Positions 28,481 to 62,101 of a DNA stretch of 64,000 nucleotides are shown here, piece after piece; within the stretch, counting starts at the first letter, position 1; every line of letters begins with the position of its first letter. This stretch comes from Escherichia coli (GTDB lineage Bacteria; Pseudomonadota; Gammaproteobacteria; Enterobacterales; Enterobacteriaceae). The notes under the pieces were generated by a model, which was given only the letters and a program-made list of their open reading frames with translations, was not told where the DNA came from and did no database searches. Made by a program: the position numbers and the translations under genes. The stretch lies in NCBI RefSeq assembly GCF_041248615.1, contig NZ_CP158426.1. One strand, 5' to 3'.

Positions 28481-28584
28481 AGTAAATGCCCCAAAAAAAG
28501 AGGACGGTTTAAATAAACTCTGCAATGAATAATTAACGTTATTTACCTGTTATGGGAAAAGTGAAATCAGCTCATAACATACGC

Positions 28585-28735
28585 TGACAGGTGTGGCACA
28601 TTTGTGCCTGGGAAGAGGGTGAAAATCCCTCGCAGCCCCCGCTGCTGTAATGCTGACAAACCCGAAAATGCCACTGATCGCGAGATTGGGAAGGTCGGGA
28701 GAGGATGACGCTAAGCCAGAAGACCAGCCAGTCAG
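28585..28735 (+). promoter_or_regulatory. cobalamin (adenosylcobalamin) riboswitch
   Basis: Conserved core gggaagagggtgaaaatccctcgcagcccccgctgctgtaa and B12-box-like gccactg...gggaaggtcgg...agccagaagaccagcc; same position as the Salmonella cob operon leader. Confidence 0.75.
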
Positions 28736-28964
28736 TCAATACCAACAACTTCGGTGGGAAGTGGGTTGCCCGGAAGCGTCCGGTAGAGTACCGGCGCGTC
28801 TTTATACCCCTACCACCCTGAAAGGATCAGGGTATGGCGGCATCATTTAGTTCTTTCATCGCAGTGCCGACAGGCACCAGGGCTGCACTTAAGGTGTGGC
28901 AATCTTGTTTCATGGCTCATCAACCAGACCGCCATTACAGGAAACTAAGTGGAGGGCGAGAGGC

Positions 28965-32964: not shown

Positions 32965-33040
32965 TGGCTCCTCTGACTGGACTCGAACCAGTGACATACG
33001 GATTAACAGTCCGCCGTTCTACCGACTGAACTACAGAGGA
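32965..33040 (-). tRNA. asnV: tRNA-Asn (GUU)
   Basis: 76-nt sequence on minus strand tcctctgtagttcagtcggtagaacggcggactgttaatccg...gagcca with anticodon loop cuGUUaa. Confidence 0.95.
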
Positions 33041-35373: not shown

Positions 35374-35449
35374 TGGCTCCTCTGACTGGACTCGAACCAG
35401 TGACATACGGATTAACAGTCCGCCGTTCTACCGACTGAACTACAGAGGA
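35374..35449 (-). tRNA. asnU: tRNA-Asn (GUU)
   Basis: Identical 76-nt sequence to asnV on minus strand. Confidence 0.95.
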
Positions 35450-37179: not shown

Positions 37180-37197
37180 TCGCCTCGTTCTCACGAT

Positions 37198-37273
37198 TCC
37201 TCTGTAGTTCAGTCGGTAGAACGGCGGACTGTTAATCCGTATGTCACTGGTTCGAGTCCAGTCAGAGGAGCCA
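37198..37273 (+). tRNA. asnW: tRNA-Asn (GUU); integration target of downstream island
   Basis: 76-nt sequence identical to asnU/asnV on plus strand. Confidence 0.95.
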
Positions 37274-37434
37274 AATTCAAGTTTTCATGCTTATCTGTAC
37301 GTCTCTATTTGTTTACGATTCAGTAAGTTAGCGTGAAAATCCTTCCCGGTGCGTATCTGGTTTTCTCTCTGTATCGGGATAATTTGGTGGTCAGATCTGG
37401 GGTCAGTTTGGTTCGATTCTGGAGTGACCCCCAA

Positions 37435-38696
37435 ATGTCTTTAAACGATTCTAAAATCCGCAAGTTAAAACCCTCTTCCCGTCTGGTAAAACTCTCCGAC
37501 TCTCACGGTCTGTATCTGCTCGTCAATCCGGGCGGTTCACGCATCTGGTATCTCAAATATCGTTTCAACGGAAAAGAATCCAGAGTCAGTCTTGGCGCAT
37601 ACCCGCTTGTCTCACTGGCAGAAGCCAGGCAACAGCGCGACGGTATCCGTAAGTTACTGGCGCAGAATATCAACCCGGCGCAGCAGCGCATGGCGGAGAA
37701 AGCGGCCTGCTCCCCTGAAAAGTGCTTTAAGGCAGTGGCGCTGGCCTGGCACAAAACCAACAAAAAATGGTCGGCTGATTATGCCGCCCGTATTCTCGCC
37801 AGTATGGAAAACCATATCTTCCCGGCGATTGGTCATCTGCCAGTTGCCACTCTTAAAACGCAGGATTTACTGCTTTGTTGCGGGTTATCGAGGATAAAGG
37901 CTTTCTGGAAGTCGCGTCCCGAACCCGGCAGCAACTCAGCAACATCATGTGCTATGCCGTTCAGCAGGGGCTTACCGAAAGCAATCCGGCGCAGCATCTG
38001 GATGGCGTTGTCGCCTCACCCGTAAAGAATCACTACCCCGCGTTACTGCTGGAGCGGTTGCCCGAACTGCTTGGCCGCATCGGTGACTATCAGCAGGGCC
38101 GGGAGTTAACACGGCTGGCGGTGGTGCTGACGTTGCACCTGTTTATCCGTTCCAGCGAACTGCGTTTCGCCCGCTGGAGCGAGATCGATTTCAGGCACAA
38201 AATCTGGACCATCCCCGCCACCCGCGAGGCAATCGACAAAGTACGGTTTTCGGGGCGTGGCGCAAAAATACGTACCCCGCATATCGTGCCGCTCTCCCGC
38301 CAGGCGATTGCCATTCTGAAACAGATACAGGAGCTTTCCGGCCATCTGGATCTGGTGTTTCCCGGTGATCATAACCCGTACAAGCCAATGAGTGAAAACA
38401 CCACCAACCGGGCGCTACGCCTGATGGGGTATGATACGAAAACTGAAATCTGCGGGCATGGACTCAGGGCGATGGCCTGTAGCGCCCTGGTGGAGTCGGA
38501 GCTGTGGTCACGCGATACGGTGGAGCGGCAAATGAGCCACCAGGAGCGTAACAGCGTGCGGGCAGCCTATGTGCATAAAGCGGAGCATCTGGAGGCCAGA
38601 AAGGCCATGATGCAGTGGTGGTCGGATTATCTGGATGTGTGCCGCGAGGGGTATGTTGCGCCGTACATTTATGCCCGGCAGCATAAGGCAGCCTGA
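37435..38696 (+). pseudogene. P4-type tyrosine integrase, interrupted by a frameshift near 37870
   Basis: N-terminus MSLNDSKIRKLKPSSRLVKLSDSHGLYLLVNPGGSRIWYLKYRFNGKESRVSLGAYP typical of P4-family integrases; reading frame changes between ORF 37333-38025 and ORF 37875-38696. Confidence 0.8.
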
Positions 38697-38849
38697 ATCA
38701 GAAATAACGGAAATCATTAAAAATGTAAAAGCAGATCCTGATTGACCGGGATCTGCTTATTGTATTGAGAAGTATTACCATTTTTCTGTTATTATCAATC
38801 GGAAAGTATCTAAAAATATTTGGCCCCAAATAATTTTGGTGAAAACCAA

Positions 38850-39270
38850 TCAATAAACCATTTATCAATAGGTAAGTACCGGAAATTATTCCAGTAGAAT
38901 ATTTTCAGGCGATTGCCTATTAATAAATACATTATTGATAGATAAGTGCCTTCTGTGATTTGTCCGCAAATCACAGAAGATGAAAACCTATCAATACGGG
39001 ATATTTTCACGGAAATACCAATTAATACTCCAGAATATCTCCTGACCATATACTCTGAAACCTGTAAGAACTGCATCAGATATTGAGAGACCATATAGAT
39101 ATAAGTCTGAAATTATTTTGTTTCCAATGATTTCAGGCGAAAACCTATCAATGCATCTGTTTTCAATAGGCAGCCACCTTCCGTGATTAACATGTTAATC
39201 ACGGAAGGTGAAAAGCTATCAATAATCGATATTTTCACGGAATTACCACTTAATACATCCCAAAAAATGC
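38850..39270. repeat. AT-rich array of ~110-bp imperfect direct repeat units, each containing a GTGATT-type palindrome
   Basis: Palindromes cttctgtgattt-gtccgc-aaatcacagaag (38950-38979) and ccttccgtgattaac-at-gttaatcacggaagg (39177-39208) with compensatory arm changes; flanking tatcaata and gatattttcacgg motifs repeated. Confidence 0.65.
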
Positions 39271-39852
39271 GCCATAAAATACCGGGCAATCTTTCCTGAT
39301 ACACATTATCACTGCACCAGCTATACAGAGACAAAATAATCTGCACCAGCCCCTGTAAATCGGTTATTTGTGCCAGTGTCCCGCCGCTCTACCTGTTCAG
39401 GGTTGTGCCAGTTTCTGGCCCTTTGGTTTTCGGCCCTTTCCGGTCAGGCGCTGTTACCCTTATTGCCCCTTAACCTTTATGACCCTTTCCCTTTCTGACG
39501 CAACCAGTTTATTTTGAAATGCTCCATGACAGTCTGCACCAGACTGTATTTTCACCACAGGATAACGATCACAAAGTGCAAAAAAATAACATGAAGCACC
39601 GAAGATTGTTAATCTATATGTAGCAGGTAATGATGTCAAAAACTGTCGCAGCATTTTTTATAAAATTATGAGACATTCTGTGGGCATATAATATATGTCA
39701 CAAGATGCAGGAAAACAAAGAGAGAGTTTTCAGATATAATCCCGCGTTAGAATTAATGTGATGCCCCGGTGAATTTACATTTTAAAATTTCCCTGTCCCG
39801 TAATATCGGTAAAAACGATTGAAACACCAACTATTAATCGGGAACGTCTCGA

Positions 39853-39871
39853 GTGATTACAGGGTAATCAC
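39853..39871. repeat. third GTGATTA palindrome
   Basis: gtgattac-agg-gtaatcac; same half-site as the two palindromes at 38950 and 39177. Confidence 0.55.
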
Positions 39872-40033
39872 TATAATATCCCGGCAAACTATATTGGTTA
39901 AGCAGGAGAATCTGATCAGTTGATATTTATTCGTCATGCTGTAACGATATTTTCACAATATAAACCCGTTCGCCCCCTGCGCCAGATCCGGTACAGAGGG
40001 TACGATAAATCGCTGTCGTTACGCAGTAACGTA

Positions 40034-40650
40034 CTATTTTGCGACATTCATGAATTCAGTCATTCCTCCCTCCAGCGGTAGCCGTACACCTGTTTCACCC
40101 AGCGACCGCGACCGTCGCCATGACCCAGATCCGTCGCCGTCAGCGCCAGTGACTCCTTTTCGCTGAATCCCTGCGCCAGTATCCAGGACTGTCGTATAAC
40201 GGGGACGCCCGCCTTTGGTGCCAAATACCACTTTTAGCCGGGTTTCACCGCGGGAAATGGCTTTCAGCCACGTTTTCAGCGACTGTGAACTCTGTACCGC
40301 CTCCTGCGAACGCAGCCCCATCAGCCGCGCAATCTCCAGGCTGCTGCCAGCCCTGCGTCCTGAGTACGGGCTTTCTCCATCACCTGCCTGCGTCCAGCCT
40401 GTCTCAGCACGGCCCGCAACGCTGCCATTTCGTTTTGCAACGTTCGTAAACCAATATCCAGCTCCAGCCGTTCCTCAATGTAGCATTCGATATGGCGAAC
40501 CTTGATCTGCTCCACCCGCTGGATCTGGATATTCAGCGCCCGTAAATGTTCACTGAACCGTTTTGTAATATGGATACGGTCATTCACCGTTTTGAAGCTG
40601 CCGCCCGCTTTCTTCGCCAGCGCCTTCATTTCACTGCTTAATTTACTCAT
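40034..40650 (-). pseudogene. tyrosine recombinase-like remnant (frameshifted, truncated)
   Basis: ORF 40321-40650 resembles integrase N-terminal SAM-like core-binding domain; adjacent ORF 40034-40321 in another frame carries a GTKGGRPR segment; total too short for an intact recombinase. Confidence 0.4.
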
Positions 40651-41416
40651 GAATCCCTCTGCAACAAAAACAAACAGTCTCCGGCGTGTGCTTTTTGGCT
40701 GCGCCAGAACGATACCTTTACGCCGGAGTGGTAGTTTGTTGAGGTTTAGGGAGTTTCAGGCTGTACGCAGTACAGACTGCCTGCGAAGCAGGAGTGTCTC
40801 CGGGGCTTCTTGCCCCCCTCGGTATCGATCTTTTTCTCCTTTACTCTTAGCTGACAGCGGCCCCAAAGGGCATGTCAGACGGCGGAAATATGGCGCAGGC
40901 CAGAACTGGCGCGGCTTGTGGCGGTGAGTTGTGCGGCGTCACTTTGCTTTTTCGCTGGCGCGACCAAAGTGACGCCTCGTCTGGTGCAGGGGGTAAACGT
41001 TACGTTTCTGGTGCAGGGTGACGGTCACGCGGCAGCAAAGCCTGACGGCAATGCAGGCCGCAGCCCGTCAATGTAAGGCGCTGGTTGTCAGCAGAAGATA
41101 AAACCCGGCAAAGCCAGAGTGTCAGCCCGTAAAGCCGGGTATCTGGTGCAGTGATGGTGTATATGTACGTCAGTCTCAGATGCAGGTATTTTTGCATCCC
41201 CGGCGTTTTCAGAGATCAACGCCGGTAAAGGATGCCATGCTGGCGAAGCCAGGCGCTTCTTTCAGACGTGAAGCGACAAAGGGACTGCCCGGAGGCAGTT
41301 TGTTGCAGGCGGGAGACTGCGCCATTATTTCTGGTGCAGGAAGGAAAAACTGTTTCCGGGTTTAAAAGATTGTTTGCTTACCTGGTGACGGAAAAACTGC
41401 CGCGCTTCGCTTGTCT

Positions 41417-41460
41417 TCTCCCGGCGCGCTGCCAGCAAAAGCAGGCAGCGCGCCGGGAGA
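41417..41460. repeat. perfect 17-bp inverted repeat with 10-nt spacer
   Basis: tctcccggcgcgctgcc-agcaaaagca-ggcagcgcgccgggaga. Confidence 0.7.
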
Positions 41461-41566
41461 GTCTGGTTTTACTGTAACAATGCGCCTGACGGTTCAGCCA
41501 TCAGGATCGGCGTTTATGCATGAGTCTTCCGGTACGGTTGCCCCGATCATCGATGTATCTGGACGG

Positions 41567-41755
41567 TCAGATAATTTCCGGTGATGTTTCCAGCGCATCC
41601 GCAATCAGTTTTTCGCCGCGCGGCCTGGAGCGGGTCAGCGCATTTGCCAGCGTGGAAGACGCCAGCCCGGCCCTGCGGGAAACCTCAGCCAGCGATGTTC
41701 CCTTTTTTCTCAGGCCCGCGATAATATCGGCGGGGTGCCAGTCGGGTTGCATCAT
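41567..41755 (-). CDS. Ner/Nlp-like HTH DNA-binding protein (short form)
   Basis: 62-aa ORF with DWHPADIIAGLRKKGTSLAEVSRRAGLASSTLANAL, close to the Ner/Nlp (SfsB) signature. Confidence 0.7.
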   Translation of the reverse strand: MMQPDWHPADIIAGLRKKGTSLAEVSRRAGLASSTLANALTRSRPRGEKLIADALETSPEII

Positions 41756-42213
41756 GCTGGCCTCCCGTCGATAACCTGTATGCCGTCAGCAGTACATATC
41801 CAGCGTGGGGCGTTCAGATTGGCGGCAAAATACCAGACCAGTTCGCACAGCAGCCCGGTCAGCGTGGTTTCGGTTTCCGGCAGCAGCACGTGGCCGTTCA
41901 GTATCTGCGTCAGCGCCAGGCAGTAATCGCAGAGTGATCCTGCATCAGGCTCAAAACCGGGTGAAACATCGGGAAGATCATTCGTAATAAACCCGTCAAT
42001 CAGATGTGGTGGGATCGGCTCGTTCAGCGTGGGCCGCAACAGTGCAAGACAGGTATTAAGCCTGCCACAGAGCGCCGTTTTCAGCGCCGGATCGCAGCAC
42101 TCGATGAGCGTTGTGGCAACGCGATCGCAGTACTCCGCCAGATCGGTGAAATCGGTAGCGGCACTAAAGGGAACAGCAAGTAAATTGCATTCAGAGGTGA
42201 GAGTAGTCGCCAT
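41752..42213 (-). CDS. hypothetical Cys-rich protein (153 aa), translationally coupled to Ner-like gene
   Basis: ORF overlaps downstream Ner-like start by 4 nt (ATGA); 9 Cys; no recognisable family. Confidence 0.45.
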   Translation of the reverse strand: MATTLTSECNLLAVPFSAATDFTDLAEYCDRVATTLIECCDPALKTALCGRLNTCLALLRPTLNEPIPPHLIDGFITNDLPDVSPGFEPDAGSLCDYCLALTQILNGHVLLPETETTLTGLLCELVWYFAANLNAPRWICTADGIQVIDGRPA

Positions 42214-42734
42214 AAGGCCGTCTACAGTGAGTGATAAATATTCCAGCCACTGGAGAGGCTAATCTCACGGGTGGTGGAACCGGACGGGGTTAGCCTTACC
42301 AGCCTCACTGACACTGGCGCGTCTTTCGACGCCCCCGCCCGATCCCGCCATTGAGATGAGACCGTGCGCGACACACAAATATTGTATCGTCAGTGAGGAT
42401 CTTCAGGAGGCTAATCCCGACGCCTGATTTTGCAGGCGCGGCGCAACAATACAATGTTCGGTAATTTTCAGCAAGAGGTTTAGCGGAAGCAGACGCACAG
42501 GAAAATACAATCACGCGATAAATATTAAATACAATTATATTTATATAAAATATATATTGAGCAATATGCAGACACTTTCCAGTAAATATCCTGTCAGTTA
42601 ATTCGTCCCGTTGATATCAGTCAAAAAAATAAATGTAAAAAGAGCGTATTTCGTTTCATACAGTAACGTTATTTATCATTTTGTCCGGTGTCGCCAGCAT
42701 CAGGCCAGATGAACCATAAAAAAGGATATCAGCG

Positions 42735-45700
42735 ATGAGCGGAAAACCGGCAGCACGTCAGGGCGATGCCACAATGAAAGGTGGCCCGATAGTCCAGGGG
42801 TCGGCAGGCGTGAGGATTGGCGCGCCAACCGGCGTGGCCTGTTCAGTGTGCCCCGGCGGATTCACTTCCGGTAACCCGGTGAATCCGCTGCTCGGTGCAA
42901 AAGTACAGCCCGGCGAAACCGATTTCGCGCTGCCCGGCCCGTTACCGTTCGTGCTCTCCCGCACCTACAGCAGCTACCGGACGAAAACCCCTGCGCCCGT
43001 CGGTATCTTCGGTCCTGGCTGGAAAGCACCCTTTGATATCCGCTTACAGATACGCGATAACGAACTGATACTCAATGATAACGGTGGCAGAAGCATTCAT
43101 TTTGAGCACCTGTTTCCCGGTGAGGATGGCTTCAGCCGCAGCGAATTATTCTGGCTGGTGCGCGGCGGCGTGGCGAAACTGAATGAAAGTCACCGTCTTG
43201 CCCCACTCTGGCAGGCTCTGCCGGAAGAACTCCGCATGAGTCCGCATATTTATCTGGCGACGAACAGTCCGCAGGGGCCGTGGTGGATACTCGGCTGGAG
43301 TGAGCGGGTACCGGGTGTGGATGAGGTGCTGCCTGCGCCATTGCCGCCGTACCGGGTGCTGACCGGCCTGGTGGACCGCTTCGGGCGTACCCTGACCTTC
43401 CGGCGTGAGGCAGTTGGCGAATTTACCGGGGAAATCACCGGCGTGACCGATGGCGCAGGCCGTCAGTTCCGCCTGGTGCTGACCACGCAGGCGCAGCGGG
43501 CGGAAGAGGCCCAGCAGCAGGCGGTTGCAGCCGGAGCAAAACGACCAGATATCCCGGTTTCATTGCCGGACTATACAGAATATGGCCGGGATAACGGCAT
43601 CCGCCTGTCAGCGGTGTGGCTGACGCATGACCCGGAATACCCGGAGAATTTACCTGCCGCGCCACTGGTGCGCTACGACTGGACGCCACGCGGTGAACTG
43701 GCGGCGGTGTATGACCGCAGCGGTACGCAGATGCGCCACTTTACTTACGATGATAAATACCGGGGCCGGATGGTGGCGCACCGTTACGCAGGCAGGCCGG
43801 AGATGCGTTACCGCTACGACGACATCGGGCGCGTGACGGAACAACGTAATCCGGCGGGTTTAAGCTACACCTATCAGTATGAGAAAAACCGCATCATCAT
43901 CACCGACAGCCTGAACCGGTGCGAGGTGCTGCATACAGAAGGCGAAGCCGGGCTGAAACGGGTGGTGAAAAAAGAGCACGCTGACGACAGCGTCACACAG
44001 AGTCAGTTCGATTCCATTGGCCGCCTTCAGTCACAGACGGATGCGGCAGGCCGGACGACAGAATACAGTCCGAATGTGGTGACGGGTCTCGTCACACGCA
44101 TCACCACGCCGGACGGCAGGAAATCGGAATTTTACTATAACAACCAGAACCAGTTAACCTCAGCATCCGGGCCTGACGGACTGGAAATGCGCAGGAAATA
44201 TGATGAGTACGGGCGTCTGACGCAGGAAACCGCTCGCAACGGCGATATCACCCGCTACAGTTATGATAATCCGCACAGTGAATTACCCTCTGCAACTGAA
44301 GATGCGACGGGTAGCCGCAAGCAGATGACGTGGAGCCGTTACGGGCAGTTACTGACTTTCACCGACTGCTCAGGCTACCAGACCCGTTATGAATACGACC
44401 GCTTTGGTCAGATGACGGCGGTCCACCGTGAGGAAGGTGTCAGTCTTTACCGCAGCTATGACAGCCGTGGTCAGTTAATCTCGGTGAAAGATACGCAGGG
44501 CCGTGAAACGCAGTATGAGTACAACGGTGCAGGCGACCTGACCGCCATTATCACGCCAGACGACAACAGAAGCGAGACACAGTACGATGCGTGGGGAAAG
44601 GCCGTCAGTACCACGCAGGGCGGGCTGACGCGCAGCATGGAATACGACGTTGCCGGACGTGTCATCAGCCTGACCAACGAGAACGGCTGTCACAGCGACT
44701 TCAGTTACGATGTGCTCGACCGCCTGATACAGCAGAGCGGCTTTGACGGGCGGACGCAACGTTACCGTTACGACCTGACCGGGAAACTCACGCAGAACGA
44801 GGATGAGGGGCTTGTCACCCTCTGGCACTACGACGAATCGGACCGTATCACACACCGCACGGTGAACGGCGAACCGGCAGAGCAGTGGCGGTATAACGCC
44901 CACGGCTGGCTGAAAGAAATCAGCCACCTGAGCGAAGGTCACCGGGTGGCGGTGCATTACGGCTATAACCGTAAGGGACGTCTCACCGGCGAGCGCCAGA
45001 CGGTGCATAACCCGGAGACGGGGGAACTGCTCTGGCTGCATGAGACAAAACACGCCTACAACGAACAGGGTCTGGCAAACCGCGTCACGCCGGACTGCCT
45101 GCCTGCTGTGGAGTGGCTGACCTACGGCAGCGGTTACCTGGCGGGGATGAAGCTGGGCGACACGCCGCTGCTGGAGTACGCGCGCGACCGCCTGCACAGA
45201 GAAACGGTGCGCAGCTTTGGCAGCATGGCAGGCAGTAATGCCGCATACGAACTGACCAGCACATACACCCCCGCAGGCCAGTTACAGAGCCAGCACCTGA
45301 ACAGCCTGGTGTATGACCGTGACTATGGGTGGAATGACAACGGCGACCTGGTGCGCATCAGCGGCCCGCGACAGACGCGGGAATACGGCTACAGCGCCAC
45401 GGGCAGGCTGGCGAGTGTGCGCACCCTCGCACCGGACCTGGACATCCGCATCCCGTATGCCACGGACCCGGCGGGCAACCGGCTGCCGGACCCGGAGCTG
45501 CACCCGGACAGTACACTCACAGTGTGGCCGGATAACCGCATCGCGGAGGATGCGCACTATGTCTACCGCCACGATGAATACGGCAGGCTGACGGAGAAGA
45601 CGGACCGCATCCCGGCGGGTGTGATACGGACGGACGACGAGCGGACCCACCACTACCACTACGACAGCCAGCACCGCCTGGTGTTCTACACGCGGATACA

Positions 45701-46916
45701 GCATGGAGAGCCACTGGTCGAGAGCCGCTACCTCTACGACCCGCTGGGACGGCGAATGGCGAAAAGGGTATGGCGGCGGGAGCGTGACCTGACGGGGTGG
45801 ATGTCGCTGTCGCGTAAACCGGAGGAGACATGGTACGGGTGGGACGGCGACAGGCTGACGACGGTGCAGACTGACACCACGCGTATCCAGACGGTGTACC
45901 AGCCGGGAAGCTTCACGCCGCTCATCAGAATCGAAACAGACGTGACCGAACTGGAGAAAGCGCAGCGGCGAAGCCTGGCGGAGAAGTTACAGCAGGAAGG
46001 GAGTAAAGATGGTCACGGCGTGGTGTTCCCGCCTGAACTGGTGCGGCTGCTGGACAGGCTGGAGGGGGAAATCCGGGCAGACCGTGTGAGTGACGAAAGC
46101 CGGGCGTGGCTTGCGCAGTGCGGGCTGACGGTGGAGCGGCTGGCGGCACAGATCGAGCCAGTTTATTTGCCTGAGCGAAAAATACATCTTTATCACTGCG
46201 ACCACCGGGGACTGCCGCTGGCGCTTATCAGTACTGAAGGTGCAACGGAATGGCGTGGGGAGTATGACGAGTGGGGGAATCAGCTTAATGAGGAGAACCC
46301 GCATCATCTGTTCCAGCCATACCGCCTGCCGGGGCAGCAGTACGATGATGAATCGGGGCTGTGCTATAATCGTTATCGTTACTACGAGCCGTTACAAGGG
46401 AGGTATATTACACAGGACCCGATTGGGTTAAATGGGGGGTGGAATTTATATAAATATCCGCTGAATCCAATAAATTATGCAGATCCTCTTGGCTTAGCCG
46501 TAGATATAAACCACTTCCCAGTCAACGAAGACATACGAAATTATGCAGAGAAAGTTTGGAATAATCCTAATATCATTACAATTGGAACACATGGTGATCC
46601 TCAATCAGTATATGATGAAAATTATAATAAGATAGATGTCAAGACATTAGCTAATGAGGTTCGAAATCATCCTAAATTTAAACCTGGAATGTCAGTAAGA
46701 CTGTTATCCTGTAATACAGGAAAAGGAAATAACTCTTTTGCACAGCAATTGGCAGATGAACTAGGTGTGAGAGTCTATGCTCCTGACCAATATGACTGGT
46801 ACTATTCAAATGGTAAGGTAGAGCCTTGGGGAGGATTCTATGATGCAAACAATCAATTGCAAATGGACACGAATCAGCCTGGACATGAGTTTACATTCAA
46901 GCGAAGGAAACCATAG
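42735..46916 (+). CDS. rhs: Rhs-family polymorphic toxin (PAAR-like N-terminus, YD-repeat core, divergent C-terminal domain)
   Basis: 1393-aa ORF; N-terminus [11 protein letters not shown]...[26 protein letters not shown] like E. coli RhsA-C; many YDxxGR repeats; DPIGL...DPLGL core/toxin boundary motif. Confidence 0.9.
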
Positions 46917-46918
46917 GT

Positions 46919-47521
46919 ATGAGGTATTTTCTCTTTATATTTATAACAATCCCCCTTATCTCTGGAGGTCATATGAGTAATGATAGCGAAAAGATAATAT
47001 CAACATATTCGCTCAATTTTTTATCACCAGATGATGTGAGGAAAGAAGAACTTAAGGCATCACAAGGTGATAGTGATGCTGCATTTAAATTGTACAAATA
47101 TTACCTTTTTTGCGAGCCAAAATCATACAGAAAACAGCACGAATGGTTAATAATATCGGCAAATAATGGAAATGCTATAGCTCAATATAACTTATCAAGA
47201 GAACTTGAGTCAGAAGGAAAAGTAGATGAATCAATACAATGGCTGAAAAAATCAGCGGAACATGGTAATAATTATGCACAATATCAGATGTCAAAATATT
47301 TATTAAAAATAGGTGATATTAGAGGATCGGAATATTATCTAAACTTATCTGCGGATAACGGATGTGTATTTGCAATAAAAGATATTATCAAAAATATGAT
47401 GGATAGTGGAAGGTACGATGACGCCCTCATTTGGGTTGAAAAATTGAAAAAATTGTATCCTGACACAAATACCGAACTTTACATACAAAAAATAACGCAG
47501 AAAAAAAAGCAATCCAAATAA
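46919..47521 (+). CDS. putative Rhs immunity protein (Sel1-like repeat protein)
   Basis: ORF starts 3 nt after rhs stop; low GC like the rhs C-terminal region; Sel1-like repeats; stronger SD (ggagg) precedes internal ATG at 46970, so true start may be there. Confidence 0.6.
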   Translation: MRYFLFIFITIPLISGGHMSNDSEKIISTYSLNFLSPDDVRKEELKASQGDSDAAFKLYKYYLFCEPKSYRKQHEWLIISANNGNAIAQYNLSRELESEGKVDESIQWLKKSAEHGNNYAQYQMSKYLLKIGDIRGSEYYLNLSADNGCVFAIKDIIKNMMDSGRYDDALIWVEKLKKLYPDTNTELYIQKITQKKKQSK

Positions 47522-53836: not shown

Positions 53837-61802
<7,966 letters not shown>

Positions 61803-62101
61803 GCTTACCTTCCCTGAACGAGCTAACATAAATGCGCCCTTTCTAGCACAGCGAAAAAAAGTAAATCCTGATAGCAATATGATTGAAAATTAATAACTTT
61901 TCGTTAAGCAGTTTTGGGTGTGAGTTGCAAGAGGGGAGACTACTGAATTACTCAAGTTTTATAATCGAGGGGAAAATGGTGATGGCGTCCATAGCAAAAC
62001 GCCCTCAACCATAAAGGTCGAGGGCGCTTAAGATGTCAAAAACCCGCTATCCGTTAAAAAGCAATGCTCAACTAAGGTCAGTGACATTGCGCTAAAAAGC
62101 G

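Follow-up and report, generated by a model that had tools for sequence, protein, structure and literature searches.

Results

An orphan rhs gene on a decayed island

The window, by which we mean the whole 64,000-nucleotide stretch of Escherichia coli DNA analyzed here, contains a gene for an Rhs polymorphic toxin, namely an RHS element core protein with a variable C-terminal tip (Table 1). All 1,393 codons of the ORF are intact, a Shine-Dalgarno sequence precedes it, and RefSeq lists its product as "RHS element core protein" (WP_089570725.1). Residues 1 to 1254 scored 2592.7 bits against the NCBIfam equivalog model NF041261 (RHS_core; cut-off 2000), which places the protein in that family over the full length of the core model; TIGR01643 also matched in the NCBIfam search. 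Pfam recognized thirteen RHS_repeat stretches with DUF6531 and RHS. The RHS match (PF03527) lay at residues 1150 to 1186, and TIGR03696 matched residues 1177 to 1254. The YD-repeat protein thus has an Rhs-associated core that ends in DPxGL: the segment from residue 1228 to 1254 holds DPIGL at 1228 and DPLGL at 1250, corresponding to the aspartyl autoprotease and its cleavage motif. The closest solved relative was Pseudomonas aeruginosa Tse5 (8cp6_B, E = 8.5e-119), and the DUF6531 plug aligned with the N-terminal plug of the Tse5 shell (E = 3e-8).

Table 1. Features of the rhs locus, in window coordinates
Feature	Position	Strand	Basis
Degraded integrative island at tRNA-Asn carrying the rhs-immunity pair	37197..42734	.	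annotation
rhs, Rhs polymorphic toxin (RHS element core protein + variable C-terminal tip), 1,393 aa	42735..46916	+	ORF list, translation
Single PAAR repeat, residues 2-29, proposed VgrG-docking tag	42738..42821	+	alignment to PAAR repeat 3
Linker/anchor segment, residues 30-47, conserved C-x-x-C-P	42822..42875	+	conservation; position relative to Tse5-NT
Predicted N-terminal autocleavage junction N47/P48	42873..42878	+	alignment to Tse5 shell start
N-terminal plug domain (DUF6531), residues ~48-124	42876..43106	+	Pfam PF20148 72.6 bits, residues 46-123
YD-repeat cage + C-terminal Rhs core	43107..46496	+	RHS_repeat 204 bits, 13 stretches
Variable C-terminal toxin tip, residues 1255-1393	46497..46913	+	after DPLGL; 37% GC
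Putative cognate immunity gene, TPR/Sel1-like, 200 aa	46919..47521	+	position; weak TPR, Sel1 matches

The GC content falls from 60% in the Rhs core to 37% in the tip and 32% in the downstream ORF, the layout of a GC-rich core followed by an AT-rich variable tip and a small putative immunity ORF. The tip matched no family in Pfam, NCBIfam, or the PDB sequences. The downstream ORF begins 2 nt past the rhs stop codon (RefSeq sets its start at 46973) and is listed as a tetratricopeptide repeat protein (WP_001578539.1); its position suggests a role in immunity. In the close relative EC556, the toxin tip bears a nonsense mutation that creates a premature stop, and a patch of 29 substitutions between the two sequences is confined to positions 44849 to 45557.

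The island comprises tRNA-Asn, two frameshifted integrase genes, an HTH gene, and a hypothetical gene, along with an EFASI RNA (40706 to 40833) and a P4-type C4 antisense RNA (42267 to 42355). No vgrG, eag (Eag/DUF1795), or PAAR gene lies near rhs in the annotated island. Nor are any type VI secretion system (T6SS) genes annotated in the 64-kb window (1 to 47 kb from the near-identical EC556 and 36 to 64 kb from its own genome), in agreement with the sequence-only reading that preceded this work.

The N-terminus carries one PAAR repeat

That reading had described the Rhs N-terminus as Gly-rich and PAAR-like and had proposed delivery by a T6SS. The Gly-rich stretch is real: the string it quoted corresponds to residues 17 to 42 (window 42783 to 42860), and 11 of the first 47 residues are Gly (23%, vs 9% in the whole Rhs protein; binomial P = 0.0025). 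The boundary it had drawn at 43200 has no structural meaning, as 42875 is the last position of the N-terminal module and the DUF6531 plug extends to about 43106.

For residues 1 to 47, PAAR was the sole non-Rhs match in three independent libraries, namely Pfam PAAR_motif (E = 0.006), NCBIfam T6SS_PAAR_dom (E = 0.0095), and the solved PAAR proteins 9rce_c and 4jiv_D (E = 0.011 to 0.012). By sequence comparison, this resemblance exceeds chance. The match falls on the third and last repeat: residues 2 to 29 align with residues 67 to 93 of 4jiv_D and 71 to 98 of 9rce_c, cover positions 51 to 69 of 70 in the Pfam PAAR model and 68 to 94 of 94 in the NCBIfam model, and also align with repeat 3 of three-repeat Rhs relatives. 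Conversely, a profile built from the short N-termini matched all three repeats in seven long forms. The P-A-A-R-x-x-D signature is present (K4-PAARQGD-11) and is followed by a G-x-I-x-x-G-S-x-x-V-x-I-G hairpin. The N-terminus is strongly conserved across 35 relatives (46 to 85% identity), among which R8, D11, I19, G22, V26, and G29 are invariant.

The same region failed the family thresholds. For Pfam PF05488 (PAAR_motif), where the cut-off is 27, it scored 17.2 bits (15.5 when placed in 100 aa of context), and for NCBIfam NF033420 (T6SS_PAAR_dom), where the cut-off is 124, it scored 16 bits, whereas three-repeat Rhs relatives scored 65.7 to 142.4 bits at the same position, above the PAAR thresholds. 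Instead of three tandem repeats (approximately 90 aa forming a pseudo-threefold cone), we observed one motif with approximately 28 matching residues. The position four residues past the motif Asp, which is H, H, and C in the three-repeat relatives, is K15 here, and residues 1 to 29 contain no His or Cys as an apex ligand. In the 4JIV structure, His/Cys ligands near the apex of the PAAR cone form the metal site. As judged from these alignments, residues 2 to 29 are one PAAR repeat of three and not a PAAR domain. Of the PAAR-like N-terminus originally claimed, the homology of this segment stands, while a full domain does not. Since the family thresholds were failed and only one of three repeats is present, "capping" of the spike is not established.

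The short form is widespread: a one-motif N-terminus of at most 55 residues starting at Met was found in 101 of 150 representatives. Relatives carried either one repeat (101) or three (7), and none carried two. Upstream of the rhs ATG, no motif of decayed PAAR repeats was detected in the six frames of 41000 to 42734, and a coding extension in that direction is impossible because the reading frame meets a stop codon 18 nt before the ATG. AlphaFold2 (AF2) run on residues 1 to 135 with a 35-sequence alignment gave a mean pLDDT of 52, with residues 1 to 66 below 50 and no secondary structure in the modeled N-terminus, a confidence too low to inform on its fold. An artificial three-copy construct of residues 3 to 29 reached a pLDDT of 35, which lends no support to a homotrimeric cone; this is a weak test, as the alignment was one of tripled relatives with no inter-repeat covariation.

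The linker and junction correspond in position to those of Tse5

In the linker that follows the repeat, C36, C39, and P40 are conserved at 90% or above among relatives, and P48, V49, and P51 of the junction are invariant. Three-repeat Rhs relatives likewise have the Cys-x-x-Cys linker and the PVNP junction. Chain B of Tse5 (8cp6) starts with PVNPMLGSK, and its first residue aligns with Rhs residue 48. The N-terminal fragment directly ahead of PVNP, where the DUF6531 plug starts, is accordingly 47 residues long. Tse5 is cleaved at K47/P48, and residues 30 to 47 of its N-terminal fragment (Tse5-NT) thread into the shell, where the DUF6531 plug holds them (PMC10684867). By analogy, the E. coli Rhs may cleave itself at N47/P48. 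Tse5-NT (residues 1 to 47) has been called PAAR-like and is required for VgrG1c-dependent secretion (PMC10684867; PMC7376260). Searches with our Rhs N-terminus did not recover Tse5-NT at significant similarity, and therefore the two N-termini are equivalent in position and length only.

A complete T6SS and a vgrG-linked paralogue in the same genome

The genome examined for a T6SS was that of E. coli NRZ14408 (NZ_LT599825.1), which is 100% identical to the window over 24 kb. A complete cluster is present at aspV, approximately 2.2 Mb from the window, comprising hcp, tssA, B, C, E, F, G, H, J, K, L, and M, tagH, vasI, and vgrG. The locus elsewhere on which delivery had been said to depend thus exists. 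The earlier suggestion to look for vgrG beside other rhs copies was also borne out, as the gene directly after the aspV vgrG encodes an Rhs paralogue whose N-terminus is of the same short form. The two Rhs proteins share 74% identity over the first 200 aa (E = 7e-105), and their N-termini differ at several positions and in the linker. No separate PAAR gene is annotated in the aspV cluster, and the two small hypothetical ORFs checked there gave no PAAR match. The rhsA-locus copy in NRZ14408 is broken by IS elements.

Of 5,426 complete E. coli genomes, 2,026 have the same vgrG-rhs junction as at aspV. Beyond the species, a short-N-terminus rhs directly follows vgrG in an unrelated metagenomic lineage (P0092), and a three-repeat relative (P0111) directly follows vgrG within a T6SS cluster. 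Three distant short-N-terminus relatives are orphans as well. E. coli K-12 is not known to have a T6SS and yet keeps Rhs genes with this N-terminus.

Discussion

The present analysis suggests that the orphan Rhs is probably a T6SS effector with a single-repeat PAAR tag that sits on a VgrG spike, a caged toxin, an adjacent immunity gene, and delivery through the T6SS at aspV. Residues 2 to 29, equivalent to the last of the three repeats of a canonical PAAR cone, would dock the protein on the spike. Residues 30 to 47 would thread into the cage and be held there by the DUF6531 plug, thereby tethering the PAAR tag. The chain is probably auto-cleaved at N47/P48, as for P. aeruginosa Tse5. The cage would enclose the C-terminal toxin (residues 1255 to 1393) until the DPxGL aspartyl autoprotease releases it, and the downstream TPR/Sel1 gene would protect the producer. 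No spike gene adjoins rhs, so the protein would be delivered on the VgrG of the aspV cluster, which is of the T6SS-2 type and lies approximately 2.2 Mb away in the same genome. The original proposal of T6SS delivery is thus supported, and the orphan copy itself would be exported by this route.

As a class, such proteins are already known: T6SS effectors have been described under the names "PAAR-Rhs" and "neighborless Rhs" and with "cryptic PAAR-like" N-termini. Ma et al. 2017 described "PAAR-Rhs" in E. coli, among them neighborless Rhs (Rhs-Nb) and T6SS2-Rhs, as summarized in PMC6730261 and PMC7216683. According to the same two papers, neighborless Rhs-CT are related to T6SS2-Rhs, the killing by Rhs-CT3 was lost in a clpV2 mutant, and antagonism was reported for the EHEC orphan Z5014 (PMC6730261; PMC7216683). 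Our Rhs belongs to the same species and the same core family (NF041261), its N-terminus is the same as that of K-12-type RhsA-D and of the T6SS2-cluster Rhs of NRZ14408, and it has the defining traits of Rhs-Nb, namely the lack of a vgrG/eagR neighbor and relatedness to T6SS2-cluster Rhs. It differs in its tip, which matches no described family in Pfam, NCBIfam, or the PDB sequences.

Tse5 (PA2684; PDB 8cp6), an Rhs effector whose export route is VgrG1c, shares the 47-residue N-terminal fragment, the Pro48 junction, the DUF6531 plug, the YD cage, and the DPxGL-released toxin. However, Tse5 adjoins its own vgrG whereas our rhs is an orphan, and the toxin tips are unrelated. Furthermore, the Tse5 N-terminus, which has been termed a "cryptic PAAR-like" domain and is required for secretion, reportedly has no P-A-A-R signature, whereas ours keeps KPAARQGD and is detectably PAAR-like. 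In canonical PAAR proteins (VCA0105, 4JIV; c1882, 4JIW) and three-repeat PAAR-Rhs (P0096, P0111, P0066), it is the third repeat that aligns with residues 2 to 29; by comparison, two repeats are missing here, and a single Lys stands for the His/His/Cys positions.

The one-repeat N-terminus could also be a distinct minimal VgrG-docking tag and not a degenerate cone, a tentative idea that we consider rather doubtful. A homotrimeric PAAR-like cap might be built from three Rhs proteins with one repeat each, so that each spike would carry three toxins; alternatively, a single repeat might bind asymmetrically to one face of the VgrG tip and leave the spike uncapped. That relatives have strictly one or three repeats, and that the His/Cys position at the apex is lost, would fit such a separate docking mode. 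The papers we consulted gave no structural description of it.

An unlikely alternative is that the orphan rhs is not exported and serves as a silent reserve, either as a recombination reservoir of toxin/immunity modules or as a gene kept mainly for immunity. The tag would then be vestigial, and its apparent conservation would reflect only gene conversion with the active vgrG-linked copy that homogenizes the GC-rich core. The degraded island without a spike gene, the premature toxin stop in EC556, the IS-broken copy at the rhsA locus, and the retention of such rhs genes by K-12, which is not known to have a T6SS, are in line with this scenario; the substitution patch relative to EC556 also suggests recombination among rhs copies. 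On the other hand, the ORF is intact over its full length with the immunity gene in place, and conservation reaches distant taxa where the gene is an orphan too. Moreover, several positions and the linker set the N-terminus apart from that of the vgrG-linked paralogue, so it is not simply homogenized. Activity of orphan E. coli Rhs in competition has also been reported (PMC6730261).

Much less probable is a canonical cap, in which the N-terminus folds as a complete cone and sharpens one VgrG trimer like the stand-alone VCA0105. E. coli papers do name such proteins "PAAR-Rhs" with a "PAAR domain" (PMC7216683), and the P-A-A-R-x-x-D motif is there. However, this view is already contradicted by the sequence. 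The approximately 28 matching residues are one of three repeats; the scores (17 bits vs 27 in Pfam, 16 vs 124 in NCBIfam), the likely use of residues 30 to 47 as a cage-anchored linker by analogy with Tse5, and the stop 18 nt upstream of the ATG speak against it as well. We give hardly any credence to a prePAAR-type effector or to export by a different route (Sec, T5SS/CDI, T7SS). Ahmad et al. reportedly described in 2020 a prePAAR motif, AARxxDxxxH, whose first six positions AARQGD fits, but the final position is Lys instead of His. A class I prePAAR effector was rejected: that His, a transmembrane segment, a downstream PAAR domain (DUF6531 starts at residue 46), and a nearby Eag/DUF1795 gene are all lacking, and Pfam prePAAR_I gave no match on the short N-terminus. 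As for other routes, the N-terminus has no hydrophobic, signal-peptide-like stretch. No model showed the N-terminus as anything but PAAR; AF2 was uninformative there (pLDDT below 50), and the sequence evidence puts residues 2 to 29 on a PAAR repeat.

In weighing delivery through the aspV T6SS, we counted the failed PAAR thresholds, the single repeat without an apex His/Cys, the lack of a nearby vgrG, eag, or PAAR gene, and the decayed island against it, as well as the distant orphan relatives, the AF2 model without an N-terminal fold, the K-12 case, and the nonsense mutation in EC556.

The orphan Rhs effector-immunity pair is probably one more toxin for the T6SS of this strain, a well-described situation in E. 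coli. What is worth keeping is the anatomy: the "PAAR domain" of the E. coli Rhs literature corresponds, as far as sequence comparison tells, to one repeat of three and falls below the PAAR thresholds.

Results

The rhs ORF encodes a textbook enterobacterial Rhs protein. It scored 2,592.7 bits over residues 1-1254 against the NCBIfam equivalog NF041261, 'RHS element core protein' (cut-off 2,000), and Pfam recognized DUF6531 (residues 46-123), 13 RHS repeats, and the RHS core, closed by the motifs DPIGL...DPLGL (residues 1228-1254). GC content falls from 60% in the core to 37% in the tip and 32% in the downstream ORF, a pattern typical of Rhs elements. The ATG has an AGGA Shine-Dalgarno sequence in front of it, and an in-frame stop 18 nt upstream makes a longer N-terminus impossible. 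The stretch 42735-43200, for which the sequence-only reading had proposed a Gly-rich, PAAR-like N-terminus, is the 5′ end of this ORF; the peptide cited there corresponds to residues 17-42 (42783-42860). The Gly-rich character was borne out (23% Gly in residues 1-47 versus 9% in the whole protein).

Positions of the rhs gene and of accompanying features in the window
Feature	Position	Strand	Remarks
Cobalamin riboswitch (pdu region)	28572-28746		
tRNA-Asn genes (three)	32968-33040; 35377-35449; 37198-37270		identical scores, within 4.3 kb
Frameshifted integrase genes	37434-38695; 40059-40650		
EFASI RNA	40706-40833	-	Rfam, gathering score passed, 100.8 bits
P4-type C4 antisense RNA	42267-42355	-	Rfam, gathering score passed, 62.2 bits
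rhs ORF	42735-46916	+	4,182 nt, 1,393 aa; ORF call; RefSeq WP_089570725.1
Rhs toxin tip	46497-46913		residues 1255-1393 (139 residues), after core end

Searched alone against all PDB sequences, residues 1-47 matched genuine PAAR proteins only, namely SalCis10 (9rce_c, E = 0.011), Vibrio cholerae VCA0105 (4jiv_D, E = 0.012), and E. coli c1882 (4jiw_D, E = 0.3). In all three, residues 2-29 pair with the last ~27 residues of a ~93-residue PAAR protein. Only the final part of the profile was matched in Pfam PAAR_motif (17.2 bits versus a threshold of 27) and in NCBIfam T6SS_PAAR_dom (16 bits versus 124). With residues 1-125 as the query, 462 relatives at E <= 0.001 were obtained from 1.84 billion representative proteins. 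Among the best 150 of these, 101 have a one-motif short N-terminus starting at Met, 7 have a three-motif N-terminus of 101-108 residues, and none has two motifs. The long forms (for example, MARPAARKGD...ING-LPAARMGD...ING-KPAARVTD...) clear the Pfam PAAR_motif threshold with 65.7-142.4 bits, and the E. coli N-terminus aligns exactly with their third repeat plus Cys-x-x-Cys linker. Furthermore, a profile built from short N-termini only (residues 1-31) matched all three repeats in 7/7 long forms, repeat 3 always scoring highest. Judged by sequence, the N-terminal segment is truly PAAR-related, yet it amounts to a single repeat out of three rather than a PAAR domain. The proposed PAAR likeness thus holds as homology of residues 2-29, but only for a single repeat scoring below the family thresholds.

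In 35 short-N-terminus relatives (46-85% identity), R8, D11, I19, G22, V26, G29, P48, V49, and P51 are invariant, and conservation reaches 90% or more at P5, A6, A7, C36, C39, and P40, which indicates that selection acts on the N-terminal module. Four residues past the motif Asp, six long forms carry His, His, and Cys in their successive repeats; short forms mostly carry Lys (K15 in the window Rhs), and P0066, a natural three-repeat relative, has Tyr in all three repeats. AF2 gave a pLDDT of 52 for residues 1-135 (residues 1-66 below 50) and of 35 for an artificial construct with the repeat in three copies. At these values the models define no fold with confidence, and neither points to a non-PAAR fold.

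No match to the toxin tip was found in Pfam, NCBIfam, or PDB sequences. It has ...ITIGTHGDP... and a second stretch that together give a His-then-Cys order after hydrophobic strands, an arrangement that may resemble that of clan-CD-type cysteine peptidases. A TPR/Sel1-like ORF, the putative immunity gene, begins 2 nt 3′ of the rhs stop codon. In the near-identical strain EC556, rhs carries TGG -> stop (W1355*) at 46797-46799 (L001, same coordinates) and loses the last 39 toxin residues, apparently a toxin inactivated in a relative; the immunity gene is unchanged. The two rhs genes differ at 30 positions, the thirtieth being W1355* and the other 29 lying within 44849-45557 (~700 nt of core), a cluster suggestive of recombination or gene conversion between rhs paralogues.

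With yeeO/tRNA-Asn on one side and yeeN on the other, the rhs-immunity pair sits in a decayed island that also holds an HTH gene, two integrase genes with frameshifts, an EFASI RNA, and a P4-type C4 antisense RNA. The island, at tRNA-Asn, appears to be P4-like. The tRNA-Asn trio flanks nac-cbl and yeeO, and its last member is the attachment site. Elsewhere in the window, pocR and cobUST accompany a complete microcompartment operon for propanediol utilisation (pdu) at 11500-32000. This operon is accessory in E. coli, and its pduS-like 4Fe-4S gene is frameshifted in EC556. An Ig-like-domain giant adhesin gene (~8 kb, 53837-61802, minus strand), split in the ORF list into 53837-56293 and 56769-61877, carries a frameshift according to the NRZ14408 annotation and is intact in EC556.

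As the sequence-only reading had stated for structural genes, no T6SS gene is annotated within the window. The system was sought in E. coli NRZ14408 (NZ_LT599825.1), which is 100% identical to the window over 24 kb (record position = 2,019,671 + window position). Here, a complete cluster lies at aspV (record positions 4,245,203-4,266,346), with hcp, tssB, C, E, F, G, tagH, tssJ, K, L, tssH, vasI, tssA, tssM, and a VasL-domain gene; the only internal stop is in the second hcp copy, at the cluster end (L006 37865-38347). Delivery from a locus elsewhere, therefore, does not fail for want of a T6SS. A vgrG beside another rhs copy was also found: 75 nt 3′ of the cluster's vgrG lies the gene of an Rhs paralogue with the same short N-terminus and 74% identity to the window Rhs over 200 residues. 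This junction occurs at >=80% coverage in 2,026 of 5,426 complete E. coli genomes. The domain make-up of this VgrG is ordinary, and the annotation of the aspV cluster lists no separate PAAR gene. In the same genome, the rhsA-locus copy beside yibF is fragmented by IS1397 and ISEc12 (L003 706-4204; NZ_LT599825.1 215705-219203), and a Flag-2 lateral flagellar cluster near dinB appears intact (L005 16798-50000).

In other lineages, a short-N-terminus rhs lies directly 3′ of vgrG in P0092 and inside a vgrG island in P0068, and is an orphan in P0053, P0058, and P0116; the P0040 contig is too short to show the neighbourhood. The three-repeat P0111 lies directly 3′ of vgrG within a T6SS cluster.

Discussion

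The best solved homologue is Tse5 of Pseudomonas aeruginosa (8cp6_B, E = 8.5e-119), whose shell chain starts with PVNPMLGSK, aligned to Rhs residue 48. Tse5 is cut at K47|P48 and yields the shell, the toxin, and an N-terminal fragment of 5 kDa; residues 1-29 lack order, the DUF6531 plug holds residues 30-47, which thread into the shell, and killing does not require the N-terminal cleavage (PMC10684867). The Tse5 N-terminus has been named a 'cryptic PAAR-like domain' (PMC7376260), and the P-A-A-R signature is missing from it (PMC9637101). Domains of this kind on Rhs proteins also appear in a general review (PMC10433429). Position and length make the E. coli N-terminus the same module as that of Tse5; the equivalence is positional because a sequence search with it did not recover Tse5-NT.

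The class of the window Rhs is already known. The part of Ma et al. 2017 relayed by PMC6730261 describes >400 E. coli Rhs-CT proteins that bear a 'PAAR motif' at the N-terminus, abolished Rhs-CT3 killing in a T6SS2 (clpV2) mutant, antagonism mediated by the EHEC orphan Z5014 (Rhs-CT5), and a 'neighborless' class (Rhs-Nb) akin to T6SS2-cluster Rhs. The window gene fits Rhs-Nb exactly. An in-silico EHEC study regards rhsA-D as 'orphan' PAAR-Rhs that any VgrG would presumably carry (PMC7216683). In the Rhs and T6SS effector literature cited here, we found no description of how one PAAR repeat engages the trimeric spike.

T6SS delivery as an interpretation of the PAAR-like N-terminus is thus supported. 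The main rival, that this orphan copy is a silent reserve, draws on the decayed island, the recombination-like patch of 29 substitutions, the nonsense mutation W1355* in the EC556 copy, and the IS-disrupted rhsA-locus copy in NRZ14408; we consider it rather unlikely. A full PAAR cap at the N-terminus is contradicted by the sequence and highly improbable, and a prePAAR or other export route, contradicted likewise, is less probable still.

For T6SS delivery, we regard the following scheme, taken as a whole, as likely. Residues 2-29 would attach the Rhs cage to a VgrG, probably the one encoded in the aspV cluster, while residues 30-47 would tether the tag inside the cage, with probable cleavage at N47|P48. 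After delivery, the DPxGL autoprotease would free the toxin tip, and the TPR/Sel1 protein would confer self-protection. The mechanical ORF start of this putative immunity protein lies 54 nt 5′ of the RefSeq start (46919-46972) and would add the hydrophobic leader MRYFLFIFITIPLISGGH. If this upstream start is real, the putative immunity protein could be exported or membrane-anchored.
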